64,000 nucleotides of DNA, from positions 128,001 through 192,000 of the forward strand of contig NZ_JAQNDL010000003.1 of assembly GCF_028368995.1 (NCBI RefSeq), in the 5' to 3' direction. Of this stretch, positions 753 to 61,816 are shown in pieces. The translations under genes and the position numbers were made by a program. The stretch comes from Nannocystis bainbridge (GTDB taxonomy: Bacteria; Myxococcota_A; Polyangia; Nannocystales; Nannocystaceae). The first letter of the stretch is position 1. The number at the start of each line of letters is the position of its first letter. A model generated the notes under the pieces. That model was not told the origin of the DNA and searched no databases. It saw only the letters and a program-made list of their open reading frames with translations.

Positions 753-1819
753 CGCTCTCGCTGCGCGCGCTGACCAAATCCTACGCCGGGCGCCTCGCGC
801 TCGCGGAGGTCGACGCCGAGCTGCCCGCGGGCGGCTACACCTGCCTCATGGGCGCCTCGGGCTCGGGCAAGACGACGCTGCTGCGGATCGTCGCCGGCCT
901 CGAGCGCCAGGATCGCGGCAGCGTGCTGCTCGACGGGCGCCCGCTCGACGATCTGCCGGCCGAGCGCCGCCCGGTCCACACCCTGTTCCAGGACTACGCC
1001 CTGTTCCCGCACCTCGACGCCGCCGACAACGTCGCCTTCGCCCCGCGCCTGCTCGGCCTGCGCGGCCGCGAGCTGACCGCCCGCGTGCGGGCATTGTTGG
1101 CAGATGTCGGATTGGACATGTCCTTCGAGACACGCAAGCCCGCGGCCATGTCCGGCGGCGAGCAGCAGCGGCTGGCCCTCGCCCGCGCCCTGGCCGGCGA
1201 GCCGCGCTGGCTGCTGCTCGACGAGCCGCTGGCCGCCCTCGATCGCCCGCTGCGGGCCGGCCTGCGCCGCCTGCTGCGCGACGTCACCCGCCGGCGCGGC
1301 CTCGGCTGCCTGCACGTCACCCACGACCCCGAGGAGGCGCTCGCGCTGGCCGACCGCCTGCTCGTGTTCGGCGGCGGCCGTCTGCTCGCCGCCGGCGCCC
1401 CCGCCGCGCTCTACGCCGCCCCGCCCTCGCTCCCCGTCGCCCGCCTGCTCGGCGAGATCACCCCCGAGCCGGGCGGCGACGGCTGGCTGCGCCCCGAGCA
1501 CCTGCGCCTCGCCGTCGGCGGCGCCTCGAAGGACATGTCCCCATCGACATGTCCCGAAGACCATGCCCTAAACGACATGCCCCATGGGCCTGCCGATCTG
1601 CCGCGAGGGTCAGGCGCCAGCGATCGCCCCGCCGCCCGCGCGCTCGGCACGGTGCGGGCCGTCGCCTGTCTCGGCGATCGCTGGGAGGTCGAGGTCGACA
1701 TCGGCGGGCGCGTCCATCTGTCGCGGGTCCCCGGCGATCCGCGCTGCGGGCCCGGAGAGCCCGCCTGCGTGACGTGGGACCGTGCGCGCGTGCTGCGGTT
1801 CGCCGGGCACGAGCCCTGA
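749..1819 (+). CDS. potA: Polyamine-type ABC transporter ATP-binding subunit
   Basis: Walker A GASGSGKT, Q-loop FQDYALFPH, signature MSGGEQQR, Walker B LLLDEP, H-loop VTHD, TOBE-like C-terminus. Start taken at ATG 749, coupled to the permease stop, not at ORF start 8. Confidence 0.88.
   Translation: MTLSLRALTKSYAGRLALAEVDAELPAGGYTCLMGASGSGKTTLLRIVAGLERQDRGSVLLDGRPLDDLPAERRPVHTLFQDYALFPHLDAADNVAFAPRLLGLRGRELTARVRALLADVGLDMSFETRKPAAMSGGEQQRLALARALAGEPRWLLLDEPLAALDRPLRAGLRRLLRDVTRRRGLGCLHVTHDPEEALALADRLLVFGGGRLLAAGAPAALYAAPPSLPVARLLGEITPEPGGDGWLRPEHLRLAVGGASKDMSPSTCPEDHALNDMPHGPADLPRGSGASDRPAARALGTVRAVACLGDRWEVEVDIGGRVHLSRVPGDPRCGPGEPACVTWDRARVLRFAGHEP
1532..1591. repeat. Tandem array of 14-bp units (GACA-TGTC-N6), in frame inside the ABC ATPase
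   Basis: GACATGTCcccatc GACATGTCccgaag ACCATGCCctaaac GACATGCCccatgg; period 14. Confidence 0.8.
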
Positions 1820-1840
1820 GCCTGTGGCATGGTGCCGCCC

Positions 1841-2875
1841 ATGCAGGGACTGAGCCGCCGCACCTTCCACCGCTTGCTCGGCGCCGGTGCGTGCGCCACC
1901 GCCTGCTCCGGCGGGGGCAGGACCCTCGCGCTCTACAACTGGGGCGACTACCTCGCGCCCGAGGTCATCGAGCGCTTCACCGCCGCCACCGGCTTCCGCG
2001 TCACCCAGGACTACTACCTCGCCGAGGCCGAGCTGGTGGCCAAGCTGGCGAGCGGCGCCGCCTACGACGTGGTGTTCCCGATCGACTACGTGCTCGAGCG
2101 CCTGCGCAAGCAAGCCCTCGTGATCCCGCTCGGGCGCGACAAGCTGCCCGGGCTCGCCAACCTCGACCCGCAGTTCGGCCCGTGGCTCGGCCCCGACAAC
2201 CAGATCTACGCCGTCCCGTACCTCTGGGGCACCACCGGCATCGGCTACGACAGCGACCACGTCGAGGCCCCGACCTCGTGGAAGGCCCTGTCCGACCCGC
2301 GCTACGCCGGCAAGATCAGCGTCATCGACAGCAAGGGCGACGTCTTCGATCAGGCCCTGCTCGCCGCCGGCATGGACATCAACACCACCGACAAGCCGGC
2401 CCTCCGCGAGCGCGTGTTTCCCCTGCTGCAGGCCCAGAAGCCGCTCCTGCGCGCGTATGACAGCAACCCGGCGCGGGCGCTGGTGTCGGGCGAGACGTGG
2501 ATCGCCCAGATCGACAGCGGCGACCTGTTCCGGGCCCAGAAGCAGCGGCCGAGCCTGCGCTACGCGATCCCCGACGAGGGCGCGGTGCTGTGGGTCGACT
2601 ATCTGGCGATCCCCGCCACCGCGCCGCTCTCCGCCGTCGCGGCGCGCTTCATCGATTTCTTGCTCGACCCCGAGATCGCGGCGCTCAACGCCAACGCCCT
2701 GCGCTTCGCCACCCCGAACCTGGCCGCGATCACGCGCGGCCTCGTCGCCGACGCCGCCGACCCCGCGCTGTACCCCTCGGCCGAGACGCGCAAGCGGCTG
2801 TTCGTGTCGGAGAACTGGTTCGGTCAGACCGAGGCCGTCGTCGACGAATTGTGGCTCGAGCTGCGCCGCGCCTGA
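1841..2875 (+). CDS. potD: Spermidine/putrescine-binding protein (PotD/PotF-like) with Tat-type/lipoprotein signal
   Basis: LYNWGDY, YDVVFP, PYLWGTTGIGY and EGAVLWVDYLAIP motifs; N-terminal SRRTFHRLL...AC. Alternative start 1829. Confidence 0.88.
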   Translation: MQGLSRRTFHRLLGAGACATACSGGGRTLALYNWGDYLAPEVIERFTAATGFRVTQDYYLAEAELVAKLASGAAYDVVFPIDYVLERLRKQALVIPLGRDKLPGLANLDPQFGPWLGPDNQIYAVPYLWGTTGIGYDSDHVEAPTSWKALSDPRYAGKISVIDSKGDVFDQALLAAGMDINTTDKPALRERVFPLLQAQKPLLRAYDSNPARALVSGETWIAQIDSGDLFRAQKQRPSLRYAIPDEGAVLWVDYLAIPATAPLSAVAARFIDFLLDPEIAALNANALRFATPNLAAITRGLVADAADPALYPSAETRKRLFVSENWFGQTEAVVDELWLELRRA

Positions 2876-2974
2876 GCCCCGCGAAGGCGTCACGGCGCGG
2901 GCGTCGGAGCTGCCGATCCAGCAGCAGACCGCCCCGCTGGCGGGGCATACGCGCACGCTGTCGCCGGGCCTCGC

Positions 2975-5859: not shown

Positions 5860-6966
5860 ATGGCCATGACCCTGCAAAATTGGTGGTTCGTCCTGCCCTC
5901 CCTGACGCTGCTCGCCGCGCCCGCGTGCGGGGGCGACGGCGGCGCCACGACCGGCACCACCGGCACCGACGGCACGACGGAGCCCGGCACGACCGACGGC
6001 ACCACCACCACGGGCAGCACCGGTCAGCCGGGCAACCCGAGCAGCCCGGCCACCAGCGAGACGCCGACCACCGACGGCACCACCCTCGAGCCCACGACCG
6101 CCACCACCGACGAGCCGGCGACCGTGACCACGGAGGAGCCGGGCACCACCACTACCACCGAGCCCGGCACCACCACCAGCGAGCCGGGCACCACTACCGA
6201 CACCACCACCGGCACCACCGGCCCCGTCGAACCTGGCCCTGACCATATCCCCGAGATCCCCGACGACGGCATGCCCTCGTCGGCCCACTTCAAGAAGATC
6301 CCGCTCGGCATGTCCGACGCCACCCAGGGCTTCTGGGAGTACACCCCGCCCGGCTACGGCGGCGGCGAGAAGTACCCGCTGCTGGTGTTCCTGCACGGCA
6401 TCGGCGAGAACGGCAACGGCGACAGCGAGCTCGACAAGGTGCCCAACGGCGGCGGCCCGCCGCGGCTGCAGAAGAACAACCAGTGGGACACCACCCTGCC
6501 GTTCGTCGTGCTCTCGCCGCAGCACCCCGGCGGCGGCTGCCCCGGCCCGGGCGAGATCCACTCGTTCATCGAGTTCGCGATGACGCACTACGACGTGAAC
6601 CCCGCGCGCGTCTACCTCACGGGCCTCAGCTGCGGCGCGATCGGCTCGTGGGGCTACCTCGGCGATTTCCTCGACGAGCAGATCGTGGCGATGGTCCCGA
6701 TCGCCGGCGACGGCAAGGGCGCGTTCAACAAGGCCAAGTGCGAGCTCGGCCGCGTCCCGATCTGGGCCTTCCACGGCGACGCCGACCCGACCGTCAACGT
6801 CAGCGGCACCATCGTCCCGGTGGAGGGCCTGCAGGCCTGCGACCCCAAGCCCGACGTCGAGATGGTGATCTATCCCGGCACCGGCCACGACTCGTGGTCC
6901 AAGACCTACGATCTGTCCGCCGGCCATGACATCTATTCGTGGCTGCTCGAGCGCTACAAGCAATAG
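5860..6966 (+). CDS. Lipoprotein esterase/peptidase (alpha/beta hydrolase) with Thr-rich linker
   Basis: Lipobox APAC, Thr/Glu/Pro-rich stalk, PLLVFLHG, nucleophile GLSCGA, WAFHGDAD, GHDSW. Confidence 0.85.
   Translation: MAMTLQNWWFVLPSLTLLAAPACGGDGGATTGTTGTDGTTEPGTTDGTTTTGSTGQPGNPSSPATSETPTTDGTTLEPTTATTDEPATVTTEEPGTTTTTEPGTTTSEPGTTTDTTTGTTGPVEPGPDHIPEIPDDGMPSSAHFKKIPLGMSDATQGFWEYTPPGYGGGEKYPLLVFLHGIGENGNGDSELDKVPNGGGPPRLQKNNQWDTTLPFVVLSPQHPGGGCPGPGEIHSFIEFAMTHYDVNPARVYLTGLSCGAIGSWGYLGDFLDEQIVAMVPIAGDGKGAFNKAKCELGRVPIWAFHGDADPTVNVSGTIVPVEGLQACDPKPDVEMVIYPGTGHDSWSKTYDLSAGHDIYSWLLERYKQ
6875..6964 (+). repeat. 90-bp direct repeat, copy 1 (3' end of the esterase gene)
   Basis: Ungapped match to 12382-12471 with 12 mismatches in 90 nt by manual alignment; the first 26 nt are identical. 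Confidence 0.9.
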
Positions 6967-7121
6967 CCCACCCATGCGCATTGTCCCCGCGCGCCCGCGA
7001 GGGCGCCCGCAGGGCCCTCGGCTCGCCCGACGAACGCCGCGCCTGCGACGTTCTCATCACGATCACCACCCGCGAGGCGAAGGCACTCGAGGCTGTCCCC
7101 AAGGACAGCTGGCGCCCTCGC

Positions 7122-8582
7122 CTACGGCGCGCGGCGGGCCGTGACGATCCAGGCGCATGATTCGAAGAGGACCCCCTCGCCGGTCTGGTGCGCGGCGAGG
7201 GTCGCGCGCAGCCTGCCCACTGCGCGCTGCGCCGCCGCCGACTCCATTCGCAGGAGCAGCTCCCGCGTCGAGATGAAGTCGCGCACGAGCTCCACCGCCG
7301 CGGACGCGTCGGGGCCGTAATAAACCGGCTCGCGCACCTCGGCGAAGGCGATGTTGGTGAAGCCAGCGGCGACGAGCAGGGACTCGACCGCGGGCGCATC
7401 GGCGAGCGAGAACGCATCCAGCGACCCTGGCGGCGGCCTGGCGCCCAGCGCCTCCTGGATCGCGGTGGCCCACTCGTTTCGCTCCCGGCTCTGCCACACC
7501 ATCATGACCAGGCGCCCGCCCGGACGCGTCGCGCGGGCGATGTTCTCGAACGCGGCCAGCGGGTCGGCGAAGAACATGGTGCCGAACCGACTGAGGACGA
7601 CGTCGAAGCTGCCCGGTGGCAACACATGGACCTGAGCGTCGCCGCGCTCGTAGGTCGCGTTCTGCACCCCCTCGTCCGCGGTGCGCCGGCGCGCGAGCTC
7701 CAGCAGCTCCGCGGAGACATCGATACCGACCGCGCTCCCGGGTGCCGCCGCCCGGGCCGCGTCGCGCGTGGACTGGCCGCCGCCGCAGCCGATGTCGAGC
7801 ACGCGGTCACCCGGGCGCACCCCCGCCGCCGCGCGCAGCCGCTCGTTGTGACGGCGCAGCTCGGCGTCGTAATGGTCGATGACCCGCAGCCGTGGCCGAC
7901 GCCGACGCCCGGCCTGCTCGAGCAAGCTGGCAAGCTCGACGGGGCGGCTCAGTGCCACACAGTGGCCGGCAGCGATCTCGTCGGGCACGACGCCGAGGCG
8001 CTCGGCCACCACGCGGCGCATGAAGGCGGGCGGGAAGAAGCGATCCTCGGTGCACAGGACGAAGCGGGTCGGCACCTCCGGCAATGCGTCGAGCGGCCAC
8101 GGCGACGCCATCGCGGCCTTCGCCGGGTGCGCACGCTCCTTGCCCATCGCCAGGGTGGCCAGCTCGCGCGGCACGTCGTGGTAGAAGCAGACGTACGGGT
8201 CGTCGCTGCCGGTCACCCCGCCGTCGCGCGCGGCCTGCTCCTCGACCGCCTGCCGGTATCGTGTGTTCTGCCACCAGTCGCGCGGCGCCTCGCCCGGAGC
8301 GGGCACCATCCCGCTCACGAACACCAGAGCATCGACCGGGAGCCGGGCCGCGACCAGCGGGGCCGTGAACCCGCCGAACGACTGGCCCACGACGACCAGG
8401 TCCCTGCGGTCGCCGACGGCGGCGACCACCGCGTCGGCGTAGTCCTCGAGCTCGAGCGAGTCGTCGTCGCCAGGCAGGTCGGGGGCCACCACGTCGTGCC
8501 CGCGCGCCCGCAGCTCGGCCTCGACCAGGTGCCAGTACCAGCCGACGTCGCCGGCGCCGTGAATCAGTACGAAGGTGCTCAT
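7122..8582 (-). CDS. Alpha/beta hydrolase fused to class I SAM-dependent methyltransferase
   Basis: N-half FVLIHGAG, GQSFGG; C-half VLDIGCGGG, FDVVLSRFGTMFF. Confidence 0.85.
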   Translation of the reverse strand: MSTFVLIHGAGDVGWYWHLVEAELRARGHDVVAPDLPGDDDSLELEDYADAVVAAVGDRRDLVVVGQSFGGFTAPLVAARLPVDALVFVSGMVPAPGEAPRDWWQNTRYRQAVEEQAARDGGVTGSDDPYVCFYHDVPRELATLAMGKERAHPAKAAMASPWPLDALPEVPTRFVLCTEDRFFPPAFMRRVVAERLGVVPDEIAAGHCVALSRPVELASLLEQAGRRRRPRLRVIDHYDAELRRHNERLRAAAGVRPGDRVLDIGCGGGQSTRDAARAAAPGSAVGIDVSAELLELARRRTADEGVQNATYERGDAQVHVLPPGSFDVVLSRFGTMFFADPLAAFENIARATRPGGRLVMMVWQSRERNEWATAIQEALGARPPPGSLDAFSLADAPAVESLLVAAGFTNIAFAEVREPVYYGPDASAAVELVRDFISTRELLLRMESAAAQRAVGRLRATLAAHQTGEGVLFESCAWIVTARRAP

Positions 8583-12617: not shown

Positions 12618-15557
<2,940 letters not shown>

Positions 15558-47347: not shown

Positions 47348-47411
47348 GCCGCCGTCGCCTATACCATGACATCGAGGCCGCAGCGGGCCAACGCCGGGAC
47401 CCATGACGAGA

Positions 47412-47441
47412 ACGACCTGGCGGCCATGGCCGCCAGGTCGT
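47412..47441. other. Perfect 30-bp palindrome
   Basis: ACGACCTGGCGGCCA|TGGCCGCCAGGTCGT. Confidence 0.8.
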
Positions 47442-47466
47442 CCTGGTTGCTCGGTGTTCTACTCGG

Positions 47467-49036: not shown

Positions 49037-49173
49037 TCCCGCAATCGAACCACGCGCCCGGGTCTGCGCCTGAACGTGCAGCCGGGGCGAACCCGGGCGA
49101 GCCGCCGCCCTCGACGCGGCGCGCAGGCAGATCGGCCCGGCCCGCGCCCACGGGTCACGGGCCCGCGGGGCCA

Positions 49174-50031: not shown

Positions 50032-50411
50032 CGGCCCCTGTCCTCCGCGCCTCACCCTATCAGCCGGAGCCGTCGGCGAAAAGCGGCAAAGTTCCCGCCT
50101 GCTTCGTTCCCAACTCTCCACAAATGCATGCAGTGGGCGCGGTTTCGCTCATTCTTAGGCGAGGCCCCGACGACGAGTCGCGCAGCATCGAGCGGCCGCA
50201 GCGCGCCGCCGGGGCGCCTCTGCATCGGTTCCTCCGACCGCGCCGCACACGCCGGCGCAAACTCCGCGACGGGCGCCGATGTGAGTCTCCATTCTCCGGC
50301 TTTTCCGCGCACCCCCCTTCCGCCGCTGTGGTCGGCGTGGCATAGACCCGGGCGAATGGTGGCTGCACGTGGTGTAGCCATTCGGGTGGCCGTCGAGGAC
50401 GGGGGGCCGAC

Positions 50412-51572
50412 ATGATCGAGACCGAAGCGTGGGTGCTCTACGAGCGCTCCGGCGGCAGCGAATCCGCGCTGGATTCCGACGACTTCCGCCGCGAGACGTT
50501 CGCGTTCCCGGGGCCGGCCGGCGACGAATTGCTGGTGGAGCCGCTGTTCGGCAGCTGGGAGGGCAACATGACCCATTCGCTGCAGCGGCGGCCGATCGAC
50601 ATCTGCAAGCAGCGCGGCGAGCGGCGCGTCGTCATCGGCAACGGCAGCGTCCTGCGGGTCCTGCGGGCCGGGGCGGACGTCCGAGGGATCCACGAGGGCG
50701 ACGTGGGGATCCTTCACGGCGGGCATGTGCAGGATGAATTCGGCTACACGGTCCTGGTCCAGGGCTACGACGCGCCAGGCACCGTCGGCGTGCTCGCCAA
50801 GCGGACCAAGATCGCCGCGCGCAACTTCTTGCCGCTGCCGCTCGAATCACACCACCGCCTCGAACAGTGGGCCGCGTTCTCGGTCCGCTACCTGACCGCG
50901 TGGTCGAATTATCACCTCGCCCTCGGCGCCTACCGGCTGCAGGTAAACGAGCCGCTGGACCCCGCCCCCTTCGTGCTCGGCTGGGGCGGCGGCTCGACGC
51001 TCGCCGCCCTCGACCTGGCCCGCCGGGCCGGCTGTCGCGCCGCGATGGTGTCAGGCAGCCCCCAGCGACTCGCCGAGCTGGCCCGCATGGGCATCGTCGG
51101 CATCGACCGCAGGGCCTTCGCCGGGCTCGAATTCGACGAGGGGCGCTATGCGAGCGACCCCGAGTATCACGCGGCCTACCGCGCCGCCGAGAGGGCCTTC
51201 CTCGCGGCCGTGCACGACTGGACCGGCGGCCGCGGCGCGGCGATCGTGTTCGATTACATCGGCGCCCCGGTGTTTCGCGCCAGCGTCAAAGCGCTCGGCC
51301 GCCAGGGCGTGCTGGCGACCGCCGGCTGGCTCCTGGGCATGCAGACGACCGTCAATCGCGCGATCGAGTGCATCGGCCGCCACGTCCACGTGCATTCGCA
51401 TTACATCCGCCGCGCCGACTCGCCGAAGGCGATGCGCTACGCCGAGCGCGAGGGCTGGATGCCGCAGGTGTCGGAGATCTATTCGTGGGAGGAGATCGGC
51501 GGCCTGGCCCGCGCCGCCGCCGCCGGGCGCTTGCGCTCGTACTTCCCGGTCTATCGCGTCAACCCGGTCTGA
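50412..51572 (+). CDS. MDR-superfamily (zinc-binding dehydrogenase-like) oxidoreductase
   Basis: GroES-like N-domain, YLTAW, VLGWGGG, TGGRGAAIVFDYIG..SVKALGRQG; immediately upstream of the NRPS/PKS. Confidence 0.75.
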   Translation: MIETEAWVLYERSGGSESALDSDDFRRETFAFPGPAGDELLVEPLFGSWEGNMTHSLQRRPIDICKQRGERRVVIGNGSVLRVLRAGADVRGIHEGDVGILHGGHVQDEFGYTVLVQGYDAPGTVGVLAKRTKIAARNFLPLPLESHHRLEQWAAFSVRYLTAWSNYHLALGAYRLQVNEPLDPAPFVLGWGGGSTLAALDLARRAGCRAAMVSGSPQRLAELARMGIVGIDRRAFAGLEFDEGRYASDPEYHAAYRAAERAFLAAVHDWTGGRGAAIVFDYIGAPVFRASVKALGRQGVLATAGWLLGMQTTVNRAIECIGRHVHVHSHYIRRADSPKAMRYAEREGWMPQVSEIYSWEEIGGLARAAAAGRLRSYFPVYRVNPV

Positions 51573-51635
51573 CCGGGCCCCGGCGGCGTCCGTGGCGTGG
51601 CCACGGTGCCACGATTGCTGCGAAGGAGTGAGGAC

Positions 51636-54600
51636 ATGAAATCGGGGCTGCCCCTTGAATCGGTAGATCTCGCGGCGGCGCGGCGGGCCGTGATCGACGA
51701 TTGGAACGCCACCGCGATCGATCTCGACGGCGAGCGCTGCCTCCACGCCTGCGTCGCGGCCCAGGTCGCGCGCACCCCCGAGCGAATCGCCGTCGTCGCC
51801 GAGAGCGGCAGCTGGACCTACGCCGAGCTCGATCGCCGCGCCGATGCGATCGCCGCCGAGCTGCAGCGCCGCGGGGCCCGCCGCGGCACGCTCGTCGCAG
51901 TCTGCGCCGACCGCTCGTGCGAGCTGCTCGCGGGCCTGCTCGGCGTGCTCAGGGCAGGTGCCGCCTATGTGCCGCTCGATCCGGAGCACCCGCGCGAGCG
52001 CCTGGAGTTCATGCTCGCCGATTGTGGTGCCCCCCTGGTCCTGGCCCAGCGCCGCCACGCCGCGCTCCTGTCGGCGGCCGCGGCCACGCTCGTCGTCCTG
52101 GACGCATCATTCCCGCCCGCCGGGCCCGTCGCCGCCGAGGTCGGGCCCGACGATCTGATCTACGTCATGTACACCTCGGGCTCGACCGGTCGGCCCAAGG
52201 GCGTGATGAACATTCACCGCGGTGTCGTCAATCGCCTGCTCGACATGCAGCGCACCCTGCCGCTCGGCGCCGACGATCGCGTGCTGCAGAAGACCCCGTG
52301 CGGCTTCGACATCTCGGTCTACGAGCTGTTCTGGCCGCTGCTGGCCGGCGCGACGCTGGTGATGGCCCGCCCTGGCGGCCACCGCGATCCCGCCTACCTC
52401 GTCGAAACGATCGCCAGCCACGCGATCACCACCATTCATTTCGTGCCGCCGATGCTGGCCGCGTTCCTCGAGCAGGACGACCTCGGCCCGTGTCACTCGC
52501 TGCGGCGCGTCCTGTGCACCGGCGACGTGCTCGCGCCCGCGCTCGTCCAGGCCTGCCACGCGCGGCTCGACGTCGAGGTCTACAACCTCTACGGACCCAC
52601 CGAGGCCGCCATCGAGGTCACCGCCCACCGCTGCGAGCGCGACAGCGACACCGCCTCGGTCCCGATCGGCAAGCCGATCGCCAATTGCACGATCTACGTG
52701 CTCGATCCCGCCGGCGAGCCGGTCCCGCCCGGCACCGCGGGAGAGCTCCACATCGGCGGCGTGCAGGTCAGCCGCGGCTATTGGGGTCGCCCTGCCCTCA
52801 CCGCCGAGCGCTTCGTCCCCGATCCATTCACGGCAGCGCCCGCCCGGCGGCTGTATCGCACCGGCGACCTCGCGCGCTGGCGAAGCGACGGCGTGCTCGA
52901 GTTCCTCGGGCGCCTCGACCATCAGGTGAAGATCCGCGGCGTCCGCGTCGAGCCCGGCGAGATCGAGGCGGTCCTGCGCGAGCATTCGCAGGTCCGCGAC
53001 GCCCTGGTCGTCGTGCACGAACAGGCCAGCGAGCGCCGGCTCGTCGCGTATGTCGTGTTCGCCGGCGAATCACCCCACGACCTCGCCGCGCTGCGCGCGA
53101 GCCTGGCGAACCGCCTGCCCGCGGCGATGGTGCCGGCCGCGCTCGTGCCCCTCGCCGCGATCCCGGTGCTCTCGAACGGCAAGATCGATCGCAGCGCCCT
53201 GCCGCGGCCCGAGGCGCAATCACCCGAGCGCGTCGCGCCGCGCGGCCCGATCGAACTGGCGATCGCCGAGCTCTGGCAATCCGTGCTCGGCGCCGGTGAG
53301 TGCGGGGTGAAGGACGAATTCCTGGCGATCGGCGGTCATTCGCTGCACGCGGCCCAGATCGTCGCGCGCATGCGGCGAGCGTTGGGCAGGTCGATCTCGC
53401 TGGCGGAGTTCTTCGCCCACCCGACGATCGCGGGGCAAGCCGCGTTGCTCGCCGAACGCGCGCGCCCGGCCGAGGATGCGATCCCTGCGCTCTCTGCCGA
53501 TTCAGGCCCGCTCTCGTTCGCCGAGGAGCGGCTGTACTTCCTGCACCAGCTCGCGCCGGCCAGCCCCGCCTATCATTGCCCGCACGCGTTTCACATCACC
53601 GGCGAATGCGACGAGGCGCGGCTCGAGGCCGCCCTGCTGGCGCTGGTCGGCCGCCACGACGTCCTGCGCACCCGATACCTCGCCGAGGCCGGCCTCCCGC
53701 GGCGCGCGATCGATCGCCAAGCGCGCCTCGACCTCGCTCGCCGCGACCTGTCCCATCTCGCACCGGAGGCCCGCAGCGAGGTCCTCGCGGCCATGCTCGC
53801 CACCGAGGTCGGCCGGCCCTTCGACCTCGCTGCCGGCCCGCCGCTACGCGCCGGCCTCGTGCGCCTGGACCGCGACGCGCGGGTGCTGTGGCTCGTGCAG
53901 CACCACATCGTCACCGACGGCTGGACCGACGCGCTGCTGCTGCGCGAGCTCGGCCAGCTCTACGAGTTCGGGCAGATCGACGCCGCCCCGTCGTTGAACT
54001 ACGCCGACTACGCCGCGTGGCAGCGTCATGACCGGTCTGACCAGCATCACGCAGCCCTCGCGCGCTGGCAGGCTCGCCTCGCGGGCGCGCCGGCCCTGCT
54101 CACATTGCCGATCGATCGCCCGCGCAGTGATGCCTCGACGGGTCGCGGCGCGCGCGTGACCTTCGCCGTCTCGCCGACGACCCTGGCCCCGCTGCGTCAC
54201 CTGGCCCGGGCCGCGGGCGCCACCCTCGCGCACGCGCTCCTGAGCGTCTTCGTGGCCGTCCTGCGCCGCTTCGCCGATCAGGACGACATGGTCGTCGGCT
54301 TGACCACGGCCGCGCGCGCGCGCGTCGAGCTCGAGGAAGTCGCCGGCTTCTTCGTCAACACCTTGCCGATCCGGCTCGACCTCGCCGACGATCCGACGCT
54401 GCCCACCTTGCTCGCGCGGGTACGCGACGCGGTGCTCGCGGCCCACGCCGACGAAACCGTCCCGTTCGAGCAGATCGTGCGCACCGTGCGAGCCCCGCGC
54501 GACCTCGGCGGTTCACCGCTGGTGCAGGTCGCGTTCGCCCCGCAGCCGCGGATCGACACCAGCCTGCGACTGCGCGGCTGCGCGGTGCGGCCGATCGACC

Positions 54601-57600
54601 TGCACGCCGGCGGCGCCATCTTTGACCTGACCCTGCTCACCCGCGAGACCGAGGACGACGGCCTCGCGGCCGCGCTCGAGTACAGCACCGACCGCTTCGA
54701 TCGCTGGCGCATCGAGCAGCTTGCCCGCGCGATCGAGGTCGTGCTCGCCGAACTCACAGCGCCTCCGGTCCCGATCTCCGAGCTGCCGCTTTTGACGCCA
54801 GTTGAGCAATCACAGCAGTTCGCGCTCGCCTGCGGACCGCCGCAGGACAGCGCGCCGGGCGGGGTGCACGCTCGCTTCGAGGCTCAGGTCGACCACACGC
54901 CCGACGCCGTCGCCCTCGTCGACGGCGACGCGCGCGTGACCTACGCGCAACTGGAGCGCCGCGCCAATCGCCTGTCTCATCATTTGCGCGGGCTCGGGGT
55001 CAGGCGCGGCAGCCTCGTCGGCGTGGTCGCCACGCGCACCGCTGCCACCTTCGTCGCCGTGCTCGCCGTCCTCAAGGCTGGTGGTGCCTACGTCCCGCTC
55101 GATCCGTCCTACCCCGCCCAGCGGCTCGCGCACATCCTCGAGGACGCCGGCCTGCGCTGGATCGTCGCCGAGCCCGACGCCGCAGCCCTCCTCCCGCCGC
55201 ACACGGCCCGACTCGTCGAGCCCGACGCACCCTCGCCCGACGCACACCGGCTCGAGCCTTCGGACCTCGGCCCCGACGACCTCGCCTACGTGCTCTACAC
55301 CTCGGGCTCGACCGGCCGACCGAAGGGCGTGGCGATGCCGCACGGGCCGCTGCACAACCTCGTGGGTTGGCATCTGCGCGACCCTCGGCTCGGGCGTCCG
55401 GCGCGGACCCTGCAATTTGCCTCGCTCAACTTCGACGTCTCGGCGCAGGAGTTTCTCACCACCTGGGCCACCGGCGGCGCGCTGATCCTCGTGGCCGAGG
55501 ACGCCCGTCGAGACGCGCGGGCGCTGCTGGCCCTGCTCGCGCGCCAGGCCGTCGAGCGGTTGTTCCTCCCCTTCGTGTTCTTGCAGCACCTCGCCGAGGG
55601 GCCCCCGGCGCCGTCTCTCGTCGATGTCATCACCGCCGGCGAACAGCTCAAGCTCTCGCCGGCGCTCCGCGAGTGGTTCGGGCGCATGCCGGCGTGCGCG
55701 CTCCACAATCACTACGGCCCGACCGAGGCCCACGTCGTCACCGCGCACGTCCTGCTCGAGTCACGCGAATCGTGGCCGAGCTTGCCGCCGATCGGCGCGC
55801 CGATCTCCAATACCCGGATCTACCTGCTCGACGCCCATCAACGCCCGGTCCCGCCCGGCGTCACCGGCGAGCTCCACATCGCTGGCGCCGCCCTGGCCCG
55901 CGGCTACCTCGGCCAGCCCGCCCACACCGCCGAGCGCTTCGTGCCCGATCCATGGTGTCCCGGCCAGAGGATGTACCGCACCGGCGACCTCGCCCGCCGC
56001 GCGCCGGACGGCGACCTCGAATACGTCGGTCGTCGCGATTCGCAGGTCAAGCTGCGCGGCGTCCGGGTCGAGCTTGGCGAGATCGAGGCCGTCCTGACCG
56101 AGGATCTCGCCGTGACCGCCGCCGCGGCCGTCGTGCGCGAAGATGTCCCCGGGGACAGGCGGCTCGTCGCTTACGTCGCCGCCAGCGGGCCGCTCGACCT
56201 CGACTCGCTGCGCGCGCGCCTGCGGGCCCGCCTGCCCGCGCCGATGCTGCCCGCCGAGCTGGTCCCGCTGCCCCGCTTGCCGCTGCTGCCGAGCGGCAAG
56301 CTCGATCGCCATGCCCTGCCGCCCCCTCCGCAGCGCTCCGCCGCGCCGCCGCGCGACACGCCTGCTTCGACGCTCGAGCAGCAGATCGCCGCGAGCTGGC
56401 GCGAGCTGCTCCAGCTCGACCACGTCGACCTCGACGATCGCTTCTTCGACCTCGGTGGTCACTCGCTGCTGCTCGCCCAGGTCCGCGCTCGCCTCGAGCG
56501 CACCACCGGGCGCACGATCGCCCTCGTCGAGCTGTTCCGCCACCCGACGATCCGCGAGCTCGCGCGTCACCTCGGCGGCGCCAATGACAGCCGTGATTCA
56601 CCAGCCTCGCCGCCGCCACCGCTCACCGCGCCGACCGGCGACGCGCGGGCGATCGCCATCATCGGCATGGCCGGTCGCTTCCCCGGCGCCGCCAGCGTCG
56701 ACGCGCTGTGGGCCGCCCTCGTGGCCGGGCGCGAGCTCATCACCTTCTCCACCCGCGAGCAGCTCGTGGCCGCCGGCGTCGATCCGGCCCTTATCGACGC
56801 CCCGCGGTTCGTGCCCGCCATCGGCGTCATGCCCGACGCCATGTGCTTCGACGCCGCCTTCTTCGGCTACGGCCCGCGCGAGGCCCGGCTCCTCGATCCG
56901 CAGCAGCGCGTCCTGCTCGAGGTCGCCTGGGCCGCGCTCGAACACGCCGGCCACGCCCCCCGCGGCAGCGAGCGCCCGGTCGGCGTGTTCGCCGGCTGCG
57001 AGGTCCCGCGCCACTGGCTCGAGCGAATCGGTGCACCGGGCGGCCCGCTCAGCATCGAGGAGTACGAGGTCGGCTTCGCCAACATGAACGACACCCTCGC
57101 CACCCGGGTCGCCTACGAGCTCGGCCTGCGCGGCCCCGCCTTCACCGTCCAGACCGCCTGCTCGACCTCGCTGGTCGCGGTCCACCTCGCCTGTCAGAGC
57201 CTGCTCACCGGCGAATGCGAGCTGGCGCTCGCCGGCGGCGCCGTCGTCATGCCGCCCGACCGGCTCGGTCACGTCTCCGAGGGCGGCTCGGTGGTCGCGC
57301 CCGACGGCCGCTGCCGGCCGTTCGACGCCGACGCCCAGGGCATCGTCGGCGGCAACGGGGTCGGCGTCGTCGTGCTGAAGCGCCTCGCCGACGCTCTGGC
57401 CGACGGTGACAGCATTCACGCAGTGATTCATGCCACCGCGATCAACAACGACGGCGCGCGCAAGGTCGGCTTCACCGCCCCGAGCGTGCCGGGGCAGATC
57501 GAGGTGATCGAGCGCGCGCTGGCCCTCGCCGCCGTCGACCCGGTTCGGATCGGCCTCGTCGAGGCTCACGGCACCGCCACGCGCCTCGGCGACCCGATCG

Positions 57601-60347
57601 AGGTCGCCGCGCTCACCCAGGCCTGGCGCCGGTCGACCGCCGCGCGGGGTTACTGCGCGCTCGGCTCGATCAAGGGCAACATCGGCCACCTCGGGGCCGC
57701 CGCCGGCATCGCCGGGCTGATCAAGGCCGCGCTGGCGCTGGCGCGCGAGGCCATCCCGCCGACCCTGCACTTCCGCGCCGCCAACCCCGAGCTCGCGCTC
57801 GACACCAGCCCGTTCTTCGTCAACAGCGATACAATAACATGGCCCAAAAGCCATGTTCCACGATTCGCCGCCGTCAGCGCGTTCGGGGTCGGCGGCACCA
57901 ACGCCCACGCAATCCTCGGCGAGGCCCCCGCGATCGCCCCGGGCGAACCGTCGCGGCCGGTGCAGTTGCTGGTGCTGTCGGCGCAATCCCCCGCCTCGCT
58001 GGCCGAGGGCGCCACGCGGCTCGCCGACGCCCTGAGCGGTCCCGACGCGCCCGCGCTGGCCGATGTCGCCCACACCCTCGCCCGCGGCCGCACGCCCATG
58101 CGCCATCGTCGGGCCGTCGTCGCCCGCGACGCCGCCGCGGCCGCCGTCGCCCTGCAGACCGGCGATCGGGCCCGGGTGGTCGACGGCCTCGCCGGCGACC
58201 GACCGCCGCGCATCGCCTTCATGTTCCCCGGCGGCGGCACCCAGACCGTCGGCATGGGCCGCGAGCTCTATACCGCCGACCCGTCGTTCCGCGCCGAGTT
58301 CGACGCCGCCGCCGATCGCTTCGCCGCCGAGCTCGAGCTCGACGTCCGCGCCCTGCTGTTCACCGCCGATCCCGACGAAGCTGCCCGCGGATTGCTGCGC
58401 CCGACGCGATTTTTGCCCGCGATCTTCTGCTGTGAATACGCGCTGGCCCGGCGGCTCATCGCGCTCGGCGTCGTACCGGCCGCGGTCACCGGTCACAGCC
58501 TCGGCGAATACACCGCGGCCGCGATCGCCGGGGTCCTCTCGCTCGCCGACGCGGCGCGCCTGCTGGCCATCCGCGCCCGGCTGCACGAATCGATCGAGCT
58601 GCCCGCCGGCCTGCTCGTCGTCAGCCTGTCCGAGGCCGCCCTGACGCGACGGCTCACGCCCGACCTAGACATCGCCGCCGTCAACGCCGAGGACAGCTGC
58701 GTGGTCGCCGGCCACCTCGCCGCAATTGAATCCTTCGAGGCCGAGCTCGCCCGCGACAGCGTCGAATGCCGGCGCCTGCCGGTCTCGGGCGCCTCGCATT
58801 GCGCGCTGGTCGATCCGCTGCTGGCCCCCCTGGCCGCCTGCGCCCGCGAGCTCGACCTCGCCGCGCCGACCATTCCGCTCGTCTCCAACGTCACTGGCGA
58901 TTGGCTCGGCGACGACGAGGCCCGCGATCCGCAGCACTGGTGCCGTCACCTGCGCGGCGCCGTGCGCTTCGCCGACGGCCTCGGCCGCTTGCTCGCCGAT
59001 CGCGACCTGCTGCTCGTCGAGGTCGGCCCCGGCCGCACCCTCGCCGGGCTCGCGCGCCGCCACCCCGACGCTGGCGGCCGCCCGATCGTCGCCACCATGG
59101 CCGCGCGCGGCGGCGGCCGCACCGACCTCGAGGCGTTCACCCACGCGCTCGCCCAGCTGTGGTGCCGCGGCGTCGACCTGCGCTGGGACGCGCTGTTCGC
59201 CGGCGAACGCCGCCGCCGCGTGCCGCTGCCGACCTACGCGTTCGCGCGGGTCCACCACGAGCACCCCGTCGCCCCGGCCCGGCGCGGCCGAGACGTCGCA
59301 GCATTCCCGATCACCGATGCGCCCGTCGCTCCTGCCATCATTCCCGCCGACGCCCTCGCCGACCCGATCGCGCGGACCCTCGCCGACGTGTTCGCCGAGG
59401 TCCTCGGCGTGCCCGCGCCGGGCCTCGCCGACAATTTCTTCGACCTCGGCGGCTCCTCATTTTTGGCCCTGCGCGTGCGCGTCCGCGTCGAGGAGCTGCT
59501 CGCGGTCAAGCTGCCGGTGCATGCATTCGTCGAGCACCCCACCCTCGCCGGCCTCGCCGACCTCGTGCGCGCCCGCCTGCCCACGGTCGCCGCGCCCGTC
59601 CCCGCGCAAGCGCGGCTCACCGTCGCATTGCGCCCGGGCCCTGGTCGGCGCCTGTTCCTGTTCCAGCCGATCGGCGGCACCGTCTTCACCTACCTGCCGC
59701 TGGCGCGGCGCCTCGAGCCCTCGCTTCACGTCATCGGCGTGCGCGCCTCCGGCATGGAACCCGGGGAGCCCGTCTTCGATCGCCTGGACCCGCTGCTCGA
59801 TCGTCTGCTCGACGAAGTCCGCGCCTGCCAACCGCACGGCCCCTACCTGCTCGGCGGCCACTCGGCGGGCGGTGTGCTCGCCTTCGAGCTGGCGCGGCGG
59901 TTGCTCGCGGCCGGCGAGCGCGTCGAGAATATCGTCATGCTCGACACCGCCTCGCTCGCGCTGGTGCGGCGGCTGGTCATCACCAGCGACGAGGACGTGT
60001 TCGAGATCGCGGGGCGCATGCGCAGCGACTCCTCCCACGCTTACGAACAATTCGCGGCGACCTTGCGCGACGACCCCAGCTTCCGCACCCTCGTGCGCAC
60101 CACCTGGAGCGCCCTCGCCGGCTGCGAACCGGGTCCGCTCGCCGCCGAGGTCCTCTACGTCAAGGCCCGCGTGCAGCCGGACGACGACCGCCACGCCGAC
60201 CACGCGTGGATGGCTCTCGTCGAAGGAGCGTTCGCGCGTATCACCGTCGACGCCGATCATTTCTCGATGATGGACGAGCCCGCCGTGGCCCACGTCGCCG
60301 CCGCCATGAACGCCGCGCTCGCCGCCCCGCCTCGCTCGACGCCATGA
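51636..60347 (+). CDS. Hybrid NRPS/type I PKS: A-T-C-A-T-KS-AT-ACP-TE
   Basis: YTSGSTGRPKG twice, GGHSL (53331, 56454), HHIVTDG (53901), TACSTS (57153), GHSLG (58491), GGSSF (59448), GHSAG (59856); SD upstream of ATG 51636. Confidence 0.96.
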   Translation: MKSGLPLESVDLAAARRAVIDDWNATAIDLDGERCLHACVAAQVARTPERIAVVAESGSWTYAELDRRADAIAAELQRRGARRGTLVAVCADRSCELLAGLLGVLRAGAAYVPLDPEHPRERLEFMLADCGAPLVLAQRRHAALLSAAAATLVVLDASFPPAGPVAAEVGPDDLIYVMYTSGSTGRPKGVMNIHRGVVNRLLDMQRTLPLGADDRVLQKTPCGFDISVYELFWPLLAGATLVMARPGGHRDPAYLVETIASHAITTIHFVPPMLAAFLEQDDLGPCHSLRRVLCTGDVLAPALVQACHARLDVEVYNLYGPTEAAIEVTAHRCERDSDTASVPIGKPIANCTIYVLDPAGEPVPPGTAGELHIGGVQVSRGYWGRPALTAERFVPDPFTAAPARRLYRTGDLARWRSDGVLEFLGRLDHQVKIRGVRVEPGEIEAVLREHSQVRDALVVVHEQASERRLVAYVVFAGESPHDLAALRASLANRLPAAMVPAALVPLAAIPVLSNGKIDRSALPRPEAQSPERVAPRGPIELAIAELWQSVLGAGECGVKDEFLAIGGHSLHAAQIVARMRRALGRSISLAEFFAHPTIAGQAALLAERARPAEDAIPALSADSGPLSFAEERLYFLHQLAPASPAYHCPHAFHITGECDEARLEAALLALVGRHDVLRTRYLAEAGLPRRAIDRQARLDLARRDLSHLAPEARSEVLAAMLATEVGRPFDLAAGPPLRAGLVRLDRDARVLWLVQHHIVTDGWTDALLLRELGQLYEFGQIDAAPSLNYADYAAWQRHDRSDQHHAALARWQARLAGAPALLTLPIDRPRSDASTGRGARVTFAVSPTTLAPLRHLARAAGATLAHALLSVFVAVLRRFADQDDMVVGLTTAARARVELEEVAGFFVNTLPIRLDLADDPTLPTLLARVRDAVLAAHADETVPFEQIVRTVRAPRDLGGSPLVQVAFAPQPRIDTSLRLRGCAVRPIDLHAGGAIFDLTLLTRETEDDGLAAALEYSTDRFDRWRIEQLARAIEVVLAELTAPPVPISELPLLTPVEQSQQFALACGPPQDSAPGGVHARFEAQVDHTPDAVALVDGDARVTYAQLERRANRLSHHLRGLGVRRGSLVGVVATRTAATFVAVLAVLKAGGAYVPLDPSYPAQRLAHILEDAGLRWIVAEPDAAALLPPHTARLVEPDAPSPDAHRLEPSDLGPDDLAYVLYTSGSTGRPKGVAMPHGPLHNLVGWHLRDPRLGRPARTLQFASLNFDVSAQEFLTTWATGGALILVAEDARRDARALLALLARQAVERLFLPFVFLQHLAEGPPAPSLVDVITAGEQLKLSPALREWFGRMPACALHNHYGPTEAHVVTAHVLLESRESWPSLPPIGAPISNTRIYLLDAHQRPVPPGVTGELHIAGAALARGYLGQPAHTAERFVPDPWCPGQRMYRTGDLARRAPDGDLEYVGRRDSQVKLRGVRVELGEIEAVLTEDLAVTAAAAVVREDVPGDRRLVAYVAASGPLDLDSLRARLRARLPAPMLPAELVPLPRLPLLPSGKLDRHALPPPPQRSAAPPRDTPASTLEQQIAASWRELLQLDHVDLDDRFFDLGGHSLLLAQVRARLERTTGRTIALVELFRHPTIRELARHLGGANDSRDSPASPPPPLTAPTGDARAIAIIGMAGRFPGAASVDALWAALVAGRELITFSTREQLVAAGVDPALIDAPRFVPAIGVMPDAMCFDAAFFGYGPREARLLDPQQRVLLEVAWAALEHAGHAPRGSERPVGVFAGCEVPRHWLERIGAPGGPLSIEEYEVGFANMNDTLATRVAYELGLRGPAFTVQTACSTSLVAVHLACQSLLTGECELALAGGAVVMPPDRLGHVSEGGSVVAPDGRCRPFDADAQGIVGGNGVGVVVLKRLADALADGDSIHAVIHATAINNDGARKVGFTAPSVPGQIEVIERALALAAVDPVRIGLVEAHGTATRLGDPIEVAALTQAWRRSTAARGYCALGSIKGNIGHLGAAAGIAGLIKAALALAREAIPPTLHFRAANPELALDTSPFFVNSDTITWPKSHVPRFAAVSAFGVGGTNAHAILGEAPAIAPGEPSRPVQLLVLSAQSPASLAEGATRLADALSGPDAPALADVAHTLARGRTPMRHRRAVVARDAAAAAVALQTGDRARVVDGLAGDRPPRIAFMFPGGGTQTVGMGRELYTADPSFRAEFDAAADRFAAELELDVRALLFTADPDEAARGLLRPTRFLPAIFCCEYALARRLIALGVVPAAVTGHSLGEYTAAAIAGVLSLADAARLLAIRARLHESIELPAGLLVVSLSEAALTRRLTPDLDIAAVNAEDSCVVAGHLAAIESFEAELARDSVECRRLPVSGASHCALVDPLLAPLAACARELDLAAPTIPLVSNVTGDWLGDDEARDPQHWCRHLRGAVRFADGLGRLLADRDLLLVEVGPGRTLAGLARRHPDAGGRPIVATMAARGGGRTDLEAFTHALAQLWCRGVDLRWDALFAGERRRRVPLPTYAFARVHHEHPVAPARRGRDVAAFPITDAPVAPAIIPADALADPIARTLADVFAEVLGVPAPGLADNFFDLGGSSFLALRVRVRVEELLAVKLPVHAFVEHPTLAGLADLVRARLPTVAAPVPAQARLTVALRPGPGRRLFLFQPIGGTVFTYLPLARRLEPSLHVIGVRASGMEPGEPVFDRLDPLLDRLLDEVRACQPHGPYLLGGHSAGGVLAFELARRLLAAGERVENIVMLDTASLALVRRLVITSDEDVFEIAGRMRSDSSHAYEQFAATLRDDPSFRTLVRTTWSALAGCEPGPLAAEVLYVKARVQPDDDRHADHAWMALVEGAFARITVDADHFSMMDEPAVAHVAAAMNAALAAPPRSTP

Positions 60348-60420
60348 TATGTCTCAAAGGACAGGACGATCGCACAGGCCCCGCACGATCGCCTGTCCCT
60401 CGGGACATCTTATTTCGAGC

Positions 60421-61533
60421 TCAGGCCGCGCCCTTGACCGGCGTCGTCGGGGCAGCCGCGGGGATCCCATAATACAGCCGCGCCGCCAGCCCGCCTTCCT
60501 CGGCGACGCGCTCGGCCGCCGCGCCGGCCACAAGCTCGATGCGCGCCCCCGCGGCCATCGCCAGCTCGGGCAGCCGCACCCGCAGGTCGACCTCGGCCAG
60601 CGGCCACGGCACCAGCAACAGCTCGACCTGCTTGTTCTTCAGGCAGTCGAGCACCGTGGCGATGCCGAGCGCCCCGCGGCCGCCGGCCTTGGCCAGGTCG
60701 ACCACCTCGTCCACCAGCGCGCTCTCGTACGCGCGCTCGTGCTCGAGCGCGTGCGGCATCAGGTGGTCCCACGTCGCCTGGTCGGTCAGGTGCAGCGGCG
60801 TCGGCACGATCGCGATCACGGCCTTGCGGACCGTGTCGTGCATGAGGCCCTCGACCGCCCGCGCCGCGCCATCCATCCCTGCGAGCACGATCCGCTTCGC
60901 ACCTGACTCTTCGAGCAGGTTCGCGCATTGCTCGGCGACCTGGCGGTAGAACCGGCGCGCATGATCCTCGATCGTCGCCTCGAAGGCGTCGCGGTTGCTG
61001 CCGCCCTGGGTGTAACCGCCCTCGCCGCGGCCGGTCGCCGGCAGGTATTTCGGCGGGAAGTCGTACTCGCGGACCTCGTTGTAGCGGGTCCCGCCGAGCC
61101 CGGCGCGGCCGAGCCGGGCGACGAAGAAGCGGACCTTCTCCGAGTCGACAAGGGCCACCACGTACGGCTCGTACTCGTCGAGCAGCCACAGCAGCGAGGC
61201 CACCGCCGGCCGCCCGAAGTGGACCTCCGGCGCCACGATCGGCACCTGCAGTCTCAGCACCTCCTCGCCGGTCGGGGTGAAGAACGCCGCCACCGCCTTG
61301 CACTCCGGCCGCAGCGTGGCGAAGAACTGTTCGGCCCGCGCCAGCAGCTCCGGCAGCGCCGGGTCGTCGGAACTCGCCTTCAGGTCGCGCAGCGAGTTCT
61401 TGACCAAAATCCGCCAGCCGGGCGTGCGGCCCTGATTCTCGAGCAGCGACGGGTCGACCTGGGCGTAGATCGAGAGCGTCTTGTCGGCCCCCGGTTGGCT
61501 GAGCACGCGATGGACATCGGTAATTTTGAGCAT
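60421..61533 (-). CDS. Bacterial aeRF1/pelota-superfamily (baeRF-type) protein
   Basis: LSIYAQVDP N-domain, LLDEYEPYVVALVDSEKVRFF RNase H-like domain, GALGIATVLDCL..VELLLV..GARIELV..GGLAARLYY C-domain. Confidence 0.75.
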   Translation of the reverse strand: MLKITDVHRVLSQPGADKTLSIYAQVDPSLLENQGRTPGWRILVKNSLRDLKASSDDPALPELLARAEQFFATLRPECKAVAAFFTPTGEEVLRLQVPIVAPEVHFGRPAVASLLWLLDEYEPYVVALVDSEKVRFFVARLGRAGLGGTRYNEVREYDFPPKYLPATGRGEGGYTQGGSNRDAFEATIEDHARRFYRQVAEQCANLLEESGAKRIVLAGMDGAARAVEGLMHDTVRKAVIAIVPTPLHLTDQATWDHLMPHALEHERAYESALVDEVVDLAKAGGRGALGIATVLDCLKNKQVELLLVPWPLAEVDLRVRLPELAMAAGARIELVAGAAAERVAEEGGLAARLYYGIPAAAPTTPVKGAA

Positions 61534-61784
61534 GCAGACCTCGTTGCCGCGAAGTCTGGGCAATTGCCGCGCTCGTGCAAACGCCGGACGAGCTCTGCCG
61601 CCGCGATCGCACCGCCGCTCGCCAATGGTGGCAGGCGCAGCCGCGACGCCGGCGCCGGGGCGACGGGTGCGCTCGGTGCATGCCTCGGGATCGCCGGCGG
61701 CCGCCCGCTCTCACGAGCGCTGATATTCCGGACTACGCATTCGCCGATCGACGCGAGCGACCAGCGAGCCCGACCTTTGGCGAA

Positions 61785-61816
61785 TGTCCGTTCGGACATG
61801 TCTTACGAGACATGTC
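61785..61816. repeat. TGTC-N6-GACA tandem array
   Basis: TGTCcgttcgGACA TGTCttacgaGACA TGTC. Confidence 0.85.

Follow-up and report, generated by a model that had tools for sequence, protein, structure and literature searches.

A genus-wide bipartite palindrome of Nannocystis is under constraint and shows REP-like placement behind genes

Results

We analyzed a stretch of 64,000 nucleotides from the soil myxobacterium Nannocystis bainbridge (contig NZ_JAQNDL010000003.1, positions 128,001 to 192,000; G000:C2:128001-192000 in our genome set), referred to here as the window, in which an earlier note had pointed to many copies of the palindrome TGTC-N6-GACA. The genome, G000, amounts to 11.05 Mb in five contigs with 71-72% G+C. 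We found 20 exact copies in the window, while 0.67 were expected from 100 dinucleotide-preserving shuffles (sd 0.79, largest 3; 0/100 shuffles reached 20). All 19 exact copies listed in the note were real, a further one at 39853 had been overlooked, and the estimate of less than one chance copy in 64 kb was in line with the shuffles. When one mismatch was allowed, we counted 49 sites versus 17.4 expected, and the variants reported at 25638, 34532, 38474, 43709, 43723 and 47213 were all true one-mismatch sites. The spacers CCGAAG and CCCGGG, which the note had called favoured, occurred three times each in the window. The head-to-tail chaining in steps of 14 bp was also present, with exact units at 1105/1119 and 61785/61799 and pairs including a one-mismatch unit at 30515/30529 and 43709/43723. 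Our results identify the motif as a real, genus-wide bipartite palindrome under constraint, whose placement resembles that of repetitive extragenic palindromic (REP) elements.

Genes were taken from a codon-log-odds caller (8142 genes, 83.6% of the genome) and not from a curated annotation. Several units of the window lie between convergent genes. The unit at 7094-7107 separates 5860-6966(+) from 7122-8582(-). The one at 31923-31936 lies in a convergent spacer, 20 nt past the stop of 31956-32696(-), and this gene end carries an exact copy in the genome G007 and a one-mismatch copy in the sister genome G005, despite different neighbour genes. Two exact units (45486 and 45514) occupy 45486-45527 of another convergent spacer; the copy at 45514, within a longer palindrome with an 11-bp stem, was retained in both G005 and G007, where its flanks had changed in a compensatory manner, and the copy at 45486 was absent in both. 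Two further exact units, at 60350 and 60394 (60350-60407), fill a convergent spacer of 73 nt and can pair with each other. Other units follow a single gene end. The unit at 15748-15761 lies in the tandem spacer between 12618-15557(+) and 15960-17897(+), 191 nt past the upstream stop, the one-mismatch unit TGTCCTGAAGGGCA at 25638-25651 begins 10 nt past the stop of 25155-25628(+), and the unit at 46142-46155 is found 23 nt past the stop of 46178-47347(-). Downstream of 61844-62596(-) there are two abutting exact units with a following half unit (61785-61812); we looked at this place in five relatives and observed no such array. The gene 27213-30239(-) has an exact unit downstream (27068-27081), where the orthologous spacer of G005, 297 bp long, has three copies, and an exact unit with an abutting one-mismatch unit upstream (30515-30542), where G005 and G007 have motif copies with other spacers. 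Two abutting one-mismatch units lie at 43709-43736.

The coding copies of the window were found in genes for an ABC transporter, an alpha-2-macroglobulin, a response regulator and a hybrid nonribosomal peptide synthetase-polyketide synthase (NRPS-PKS), and in the gene 27213-30239(-) mentioned above. In 749-1819(+) two abutting exact units (1105-1118 and 1119-1132) lie within the ABC_tran domain (residues 19-162), and an exact unit at 1536-1549, followed by degenerate 14-bp units (a one-mismatch unit at 1564), lies in the stretch of a weak TOBE_2 match (residues 247-350). The arms of the unit at 29721-29734, inside 27213-30239(-), were identical in G005 and G007. Arms were kept in both genomes also at 33940-33953, inside the alpha-2-macroglobulin gene 32717-38737(-), at 39853-39866, inside 39175-40212(-) with its Response_reg match, and at 56144-56157, inside the NRPS-PKS gene 51690-60347(+); the spacer was changed in G007 in the first two and in G005 in the third. 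The alpha-2-macroglobulin gene contains another exact unit at 34804-34817.

Across the whole genome the enrichment was specific for one spacing, as had been predicted for k = 6. There were 3663 copies of TGTC-N6-GACA, approximately 0.33 per kb, and 29-175 copies at every other k between 0 and 19. The count of 984 at k = 20 came from units in 14-bp phase, and just 144 of these represented two exact abutting units. With arms of 5 bp (TGTCC-N4-GGACA) we counted 1987 copies, while nine other spacings gave a median of 5; a gap of 4 nt was approximately 400 times more common than gaps of 3 or 5 nt, which stayed at background. We also scanned all 256 four-base words against their own reverse complements, with gaps of 0-16, over the whole genome. 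The motif was the strongest gapped palindrome of the genome, and the top signals of the scan were registers of this one motif (ATGT-N8-ACAT, 2000; TGTC-N6-GACA, 3663; CATG-N10-CATG, 3736; GTCC-N4-GGAC, 2651). A lone half-site was weakly enriched, and the enriched unit was the pair at fixed spacing. The junction between two units forms the palindrome GACATGTC, present in 2237 copies as compared with 52-161 at most other GACA/TGTC spacings; 972 of the 2237 had no exact partner arm.

The fuller consensus derived from the 3663 copies was CATGTCC-N4-GGACATG, in its extended form ACA-TGTCC-Y-NN-R-GGACA-TGT, and the flank signal was limited to this immediate ACA/TGT extension of the palindrome. Within the half-site G2 was nearly invariant and T3 was the loosest position, and at position 5, 75% of copies had C and 16% had T. 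The most common spacers were CCCGAG (107), CTTCGG (105), CCGAAG (88) and CCCGGG (81). Among the 3663 copies we found 3637 distinct 30-mers, each consisting of the motif and 8 flanking bases on either side. Therefore the copies are not fragments of a longer element, in accordance with the lack of a conserved flank noted earlier.

Genome-wide, exact units followed one another in 14-bp steps as 134 doubles and 5 triples, and the most frequent distances between copies were 14, 28, 42 and 56 bp. Tandem Repeats Finder detected 554 arrays of at least 2.5 copies with period 14, 107 with period 13 and 53 with period 16, and 359 of 510 non-overlapping arrays matched CATGTCC....GGA at no fewer than 7 of 10 positions in the best rotation. 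Units of one array had a common spacer, which differed between arrays and thus points to local slippage. Outside the window, a 1740-aa, mostly low-complexity protein (G000:C3:712627-717846) is encoded with 14 motif copies, all in one frame. The copies encode PV(P/L)xD-like peptides and include tandem repeats of 42 bp (three units, 14 residues), which suggests that the motif can expand inside genes as frame-preserving triples.

According to the called genes, 2344 of the 3663 copies (64%) were intergenic and 1319 coding. The density was 3.04 per kb in convergent spacers, 1.15-1.31 in tandem spacers, 0.44 in divergent spacers and 0.14 in coding sequence, so that spacers at 3' ends were approximately 20 times denser in motif than genes. 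Within 20 nt past the stop we observed 6.6 copies per kb in convergent and 3.2 per kb in tandem spacers (normalised for available positions), and the density dropped with distance from the stop, down to 0.1 per kb beside divergent starts. Hardly any motif started within the final 40 coding bases, and counts rose to 20-50 per position from 2 nt past the stop. The interval from -13 to +100 around the 8139 stops contained 2018 motif starts, a number in which copies in convergent spacers may count twice. An exact copy was present in 562 of 1361 convergent, 757 of 3923 tandem and 170 of 1480 divergent spacers. When one mismatch was allowed, a unit was detected in 563 of the 766 convergent spacers of 80-300 nt, while wrong spacings gave 24-118. 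Tandem spacers of 14-40 nt had the motif in 2% of cases and those of 300-600 nt in 36%. Copies were spread over all five contigs (33-130 in each full 250-kb bin), and we observed no change in density across the switch of GC-skew sign on contig C3, a proxy, since origin and terminus were not mapped independently.

Coding copies were more numerous than codon usage predicts. We counted 1270, while five shuffles that kept each protein and its codon set gave 98.8 (sd 13.3), an enrichment of approximately 13-fold; the other spacings in coding sequence matched these shuffles. Reading frames 2, 1 and 0 were used by 630, 487 and 100 copies, respectively, so no single peptide explains them.

Next to abundance, the motif was conserved between species. 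A sample of 1.68 Mb of G005 was aligned to G000, which gave 972 kb of alignment. Of 74 coding copies, 62 kept all eight arm bases, compared with 16.0 predicted from identities that take codon position and base into account; of 37 intergenic copies, 26 did so (10.2 expected). TGTC/GACA pairs at control spacings behaved as neutral (29/68 kept vs 26.6 expected and 4/11 vs 3.0). Arm identity was 0.971 in coding and 0.946 in intergenic copies, while identity of the motif spacer was 0.867 and 0.743. In the reverse direction, G005 had 62 shared and 23 private coding copies, and 26 shared and 13 private intergenic copies. A or T at the third codon position is ordinarily kept in 39-47% between these genomes; TGTC with its T at that position was kept in 12 of 61 isolated cases and in 6 of 6 cases inside motifs. 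For 140 aligned gene ends, an exact copy was located downstream in both genomes in 9 cases, in G000 only in 12, in G005 only in 9 and in neither in 110 (odds ratio 9.2, P = 1.5e-4). Orthologous arrays kept arms and phase, and their spacers drifted. Contigs from four soil-metagenome runs compared with 44001-64000 of the window were short mixed pieces and gave nothing usable on arms or unit number. RNA evidence was looked for in 40000-49999 of the window, and none was listed.

We analyzed further whether the units behave as hairpins or as a sequence word. Symmetric positions paired in proportions close to those expected (0.57 vs 0.54 for positions 5/10; 0.34 vs 0.32 for 6/9), and the flank positions paired hardly above expectation. 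Mutants in a single arm outnumbered compensated doubles by far (695 vs 146, 786 vs 78 and 868 vs 127), and the doubles arose near the rate predicted by the product of the singles, which indicates that half-sites vary independently. The orientation of the loop relative to the upstream gene was balanced (CGAA 57 vs TTCG 53; CGAG 68 vs CTCG 64). In 860 copies oriented in the sense direction there was no downstream T tract, and the flanks were symmetric. A single unit, such as that at 15748, folded with -6.5 kcal/mol as RNA and -4.5 to -4.8 kcal/mol as DNA. More stable folds were obtained for 45480-45535 (two hairpins, -37.7 kcal/mol, z -6.4) and for 60344-60413 (one hairpin, -30.6 kcal/mol, z -5.5). 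The two copies in 60344-60413 belong to a larger inverted repeat, an arrangement like that of REPINs. A consensus scan for classical terminators in 27001-47000 of the window gave 10 matches versus 5.4 expected, none of them at a called gene end and all inside called genes. No Rfam family was detected in the window at the gathering score. Compared with intrinsic terminators, which combine a stable G+C-rich stem with a U tract, the units agree in their position after the stop alone.

The motif was enriched in all 10 other Nannocystis genomes (240-3957 copies, control pattern 6-48). Two other genera of the family were moderately enriched (623 vs 98 and 422 vs 18), and the remainder of the class was near background. 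Enrichment spans the genus Nannocystis and, in weaker form, two sister genera. A window protein has its named relatives, at 86-91% identity, in Nannocystis species. In a 200-kb sample of genome G013 the flanks were CC/GG in place of CA/TG. A genus of the same family with 61% G+C had another dominant palindrome in its 200-kb sample (G011:C24:900001-1100000), namely CCCC-N7-GGGG (102 copies, median 6), and TCCC-N10-GGGA was found there 51 times versus 2. Each genus may therefore own a separate abundant palindrome.

We searched G000, which is estimated to be 90.5% complete, for genes that could belong to such a repeat. There was no match to RAYT (Y1/HUH transposase, PF01797), while the same search matched 6 of 14 control genomes; a link to RAYT was therefore rejected. 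GIY-YIG matches were limited to a 795-aa UvrC-like gene and a 99-aa gene (G000:C4:546334-546633). The nearest intergenic units were approximately 2.5 kb from the 99-aa gene, with two copies inside the adjacent gene, and homologues were present in the motif-poor genomes G020 and G022. In motif-rich G007 the small gene was in two pieces in different frames (G007:C2:1991007-1991296), possibly a frameshift or an assembly error. We therefore rejected a link to the small GIY-YIG single-strand nucleases (Ssn), as the sole small gene was unflanked by units, present in motif-poor genomes and split in G007. At least two units within 200 nt on both sides were found for 128 genes. The top 20 of these included a kinase, a sigma-54 activator, a TonB-type protein, dehydrogenases, transporters, one generic Exo_endo_phos protein and four without a family.

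Some other features of the window were noted. The NRPS-PKS gene 51690-60347(+) encodes 2885 aa with the Pfam domain order A-C-A-PCP-KS-AT-PCP-TE and shows approximately 82% DNA identity in G005 and G007. The product of 60421-61533(-) shows a Pfam match (E 1.7e-22) to baeRF_family10 (bacterial archaeo-eukaryotic release-factor-like). The gene 30671-31786(+), which G005 and G007 lack at this place, begins with a long lysine/alanine-rich repeat (AKKT/AKKA-like, read by eye from the DNA), which recalls histone-H1-like bacterial proteins. Gene content differed among G000, G005 and G007 at the motif-bearing spacers 25629-27212, 30484-31954, 45994-46183 and 60322-60419. These had insertions of 1.3-5.3 kb in one or the other of the compared genomes, often with motif copies at the borders.

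Discussion

Thousands of copies lie mostly right after genes, but also inside them, and are kept intact in relatives, so that a protein most likely recognises the motif as its site. We propose that it is a selected, sequence-recognised gene-end element of the REP/dRS3 kind, bound by a symmetric factor. We assign this reading a probability of roughly one half, and we infer binding and function from the pattern of copies. The suggestion of the earlier note that a dimeric protein recognises the site holds as far as symmetric, bipartite reading of the sequence is concerned (rigid spacing, independent half-sites, conserved arms), and the binding or modifying protein itself stays on the inferred side. 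Selection or biased transmission would keep CATGTCC-N4-GGACATG in place as a nucleotide word across Nannocystis, and a symmetric, most likely dimeric factor would read two 5-bp half-sites at a fixed distance. The unit would act neither as a generic hairpin nor as a copy of a mobile element. Sites seem to be tolerated and apparently wanted right behind stops and in most convergent spacers, sparser in genes and shunned before starts. Slippage in 14-bp steps would let tandem arrays grow locally, since the unit has ACATGT ends that are direct as well as inverted repeats. At gene ends the factor may serve in factor-dependent termination or insulation, in DNA topology between converging genes or in protection of 3' ends.

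In a bolder and rather doubtful version, a dedicated, abundant dimeric protein would read the site on duplex DNA in Nannocystis and its nearest relatives. It would mark most gene or operon ends, line up on the 14-bp arrays (three units are 42 bp, about four helical turns) and mark approximately 1200 selected intragenic positions.

The leading alternative, which we regard as unlikely, is that the units are plain RNA hairpins, factor-independent bidirectional terminators or 3'-end protectors that share a stem sequence by historical accident, in a genome devoid of classical terminators with a stem and a U tract. Copies embedded in strong hairpins with compensatory changes would favour it. This would agree with motifs that begin right after stops, occupy most convergent spacers and are scarce in short tandem spacers, likely within operons, and with the lack of classical terminators at gene ends in the 20 kb of the window that were scanned. 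On the sense strand, A12>G was also more frequent than its mirror T3>C (93 vs 50), which fits G-U tolerance in RNA; at position 5/10 the sense-strand asymmetry was opposite to the G-U expectation (79 vs 100). Nevertheless, a single unit is weak, it has no T tract, its loop has no orientation bias, and single mismatches are several times more common than compensated pairs, with no covariation. Loops of 3 or 5 nt stay at background. A terminator role also gives no reason why 1270 coding copies should be conserved against codon bias.

Several observations weigh against a gene-end element read by a symmetric factor. Every unit can also form a hairpin, and some copies are part of long stems with compensatory change between species (45514) or of strong folds (45480-45535, 60344-60413). 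The placement equals that of terminators and REPs, and the A12>G excess just described, unlike the asymmetry at position 5/10, fits G-U tolerance in RNA. All statements about genes depend on a caller based on codon statistics. No binding protein was identified, and by Pfam the top 20 of the 128 unit-flanked genes belonged to unrelated families. Intergenic copies turn over, as is evident from the gene ends at which G000 or G005 alone had a copy. Finally, conservation inside genes could stem from biased transmission and not from a benefit of each site.

Less probable than hairpins is a selfish miniature element of the REP/REPIN, dRS3/NTS or MITE (miniature inverted-repeat transposable element) kind, spread by an unrecognised transposase or nuclease and accumulating where insertion harms least. 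The earlier note had held that the motif was not REP-like; in placement this proved wrong, as copies follow stops, prefer convergent over tandem over divergent spacers and are avoided near starts. Like REPs and bacterial interspersed mosaic elements (BIMEs) of Escherichia coli and Pseudomonas, the motif is an abundant short extragenic palindrome at 3' gene ends, densest between convergent genes, clustered in arrays and restricted to one lineage. Gyrase, IHF and other host proteins bind to REPs, which also make the mRNA upstream of them more stable. In other respects the two differ. REPs are imperfect 20-40-bp palindromes folding into stable stem-loops, whereas the Nannocystis core has 14 bp (20 bp with ACA/TGT), with arms of 5 bp around four free central positions. 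Nannocystis units abut head-to-tail at exactly 14 bp, whereas REPs alternate with linkers. Some REPs also lie inside genes (PMC3733652). The GTAG/CGTC tag that defines REPs in the same paper is not found in the Nannocystis flanks, which have ACA before and TGT after the unit. The motif also has no RAYT, no sign of common descent of its copies, independent half-sites and strong conservation in genes.

A similar comparison applies to dRS3 of Neisseria, ATTCCC-N8-GGGAAT, in which conserved inverted arms surround a variable centre; according to PMC11893778, dRS3-like hairpin repeats can be targets of Ssn, whose genes are flanked by their own repeats. The architecture of dRS3/NTS is the same as that of the Nannocystis motif, while arm sequence and gap differ, and the motif is without the oriented flanks of SRM/NTS. 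By inspection, with no pattern search, it does not fit the SRM pattern HGTCWY given there, as position 5 should be A or T and is mostly C. Presence and absence of copies at orthologous gene ends and another abundant palindrome in a related genus would suit spread of a mobile element, as would the arrays. The lack of a Y1 transposase match in a genome estimated to be some 90% complete and the features of the small GIY-YIG gene speak against it, and so do flanks and spacers that units do not have in common and arms that are constrained while spacers drift. An insertion of 14 bp would shift the reading frame, but copies inside genes are conserved and enriched 13-fold.

Still more improbable is a role as a signal for DNA uptake, or as some other target on which biased transmission acts, kept by molecular drive and tending to sit behind genes. 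Known uptake signal sequences (USS) and DNA uptake sequences (DUS) are asymmetric contiguous words of 9-12 bases that act singly, and they often form inverted pairs behind genes. The motif is like them in its nucleotide-level conservation inside genes with no protein-level cause, in its occurrence in genes and spacers alike, in its inverted repeats behind genes and in dialect-like genus variants (CA/TG in Nannocystis, CC/GG in G013). Myxococcus xanthus can be transformed naturally, which also counts for this explanation. However, the motif is a bipartite palindrome that is enriched as a pair at k = 6. Its density is approximately 0.33 per kb, and an uptake signal does not predict how steeply the density declines away from the stop. 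We consider it very improbable that the motif is itself functionless, a by-product of modification, restriction or a repair bias acting at CATG or the GACATGTC core: the abundant junction palindrome, often without an exact partner arm, would favour it, but the enrichment at a fixed 4-bp gap, the gene-end placement and the conservation between species exceed known repair biases, and restriction targets are usually avoided, not enriched.

The motif was also compared with other known systems. HIP1 of cyanobacteria (GCGATCGC) is a contiguous 8-mer, hyper-abundant in genes and spacers and shared within a lineage, with an unknown reader. The likeness to HIP1 drawn earlier was right in that the motif, too, is a palindrome far above expectation in coding and non-coding sequence of a whole lineage; it was not right for the bipartite structure, the phased arrays and the preference for 3' spacers. 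The likeness to matS, SlmA and Noc sites was not supported. These are palindromic sites for dimeric proteins scattered over the chromosome, as the motif may be, but they number in tens and are confined to chromosome regions, whereas the motif has thousands of copies distributed evenly over all contigs, with no change where the GC skew switches. We found no description of the motif in Nannocystis, Sorangium or myxobacteria in the literature, and supplementary tables of REP and Ssn surveys might list myxobacterial repeats; the accessible parts of PMC3696898 and PMC3372372 do not mention it.

Transcription-unit ends in very G+C-rich bacteria such as myxobacteria are poorly understood, because classical terminators with a stem and a U tract are rare there. 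With a unit in approximately three quarters of mid-sized convergent spacers and measurable constraint on its arms even in genes, the motif is a candidate gene-end signal of the factor-dependent kind that is concrete and can be put to the test. Its tiny unit, its rigid geometry and the natural variants in related genomes also suit it well to a long-standing question, namely whether REP-like repeats and HIP1-like words are selfish, structural or read by proteins. If the bolder version with a dedicated dimeric protein were true, Nannocystis would have an undescribed gene-end or chromosome-organising system, acting by roadblock termination, insulation or management of supercoils between converging genes in a genome with few classical terminators. 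In practice, the boundaries of transcription units and of biosynthetic gene clusters in Nannocystis genomes could be drawn with the aid of the motif, which would also matter when expression constructs are designed.

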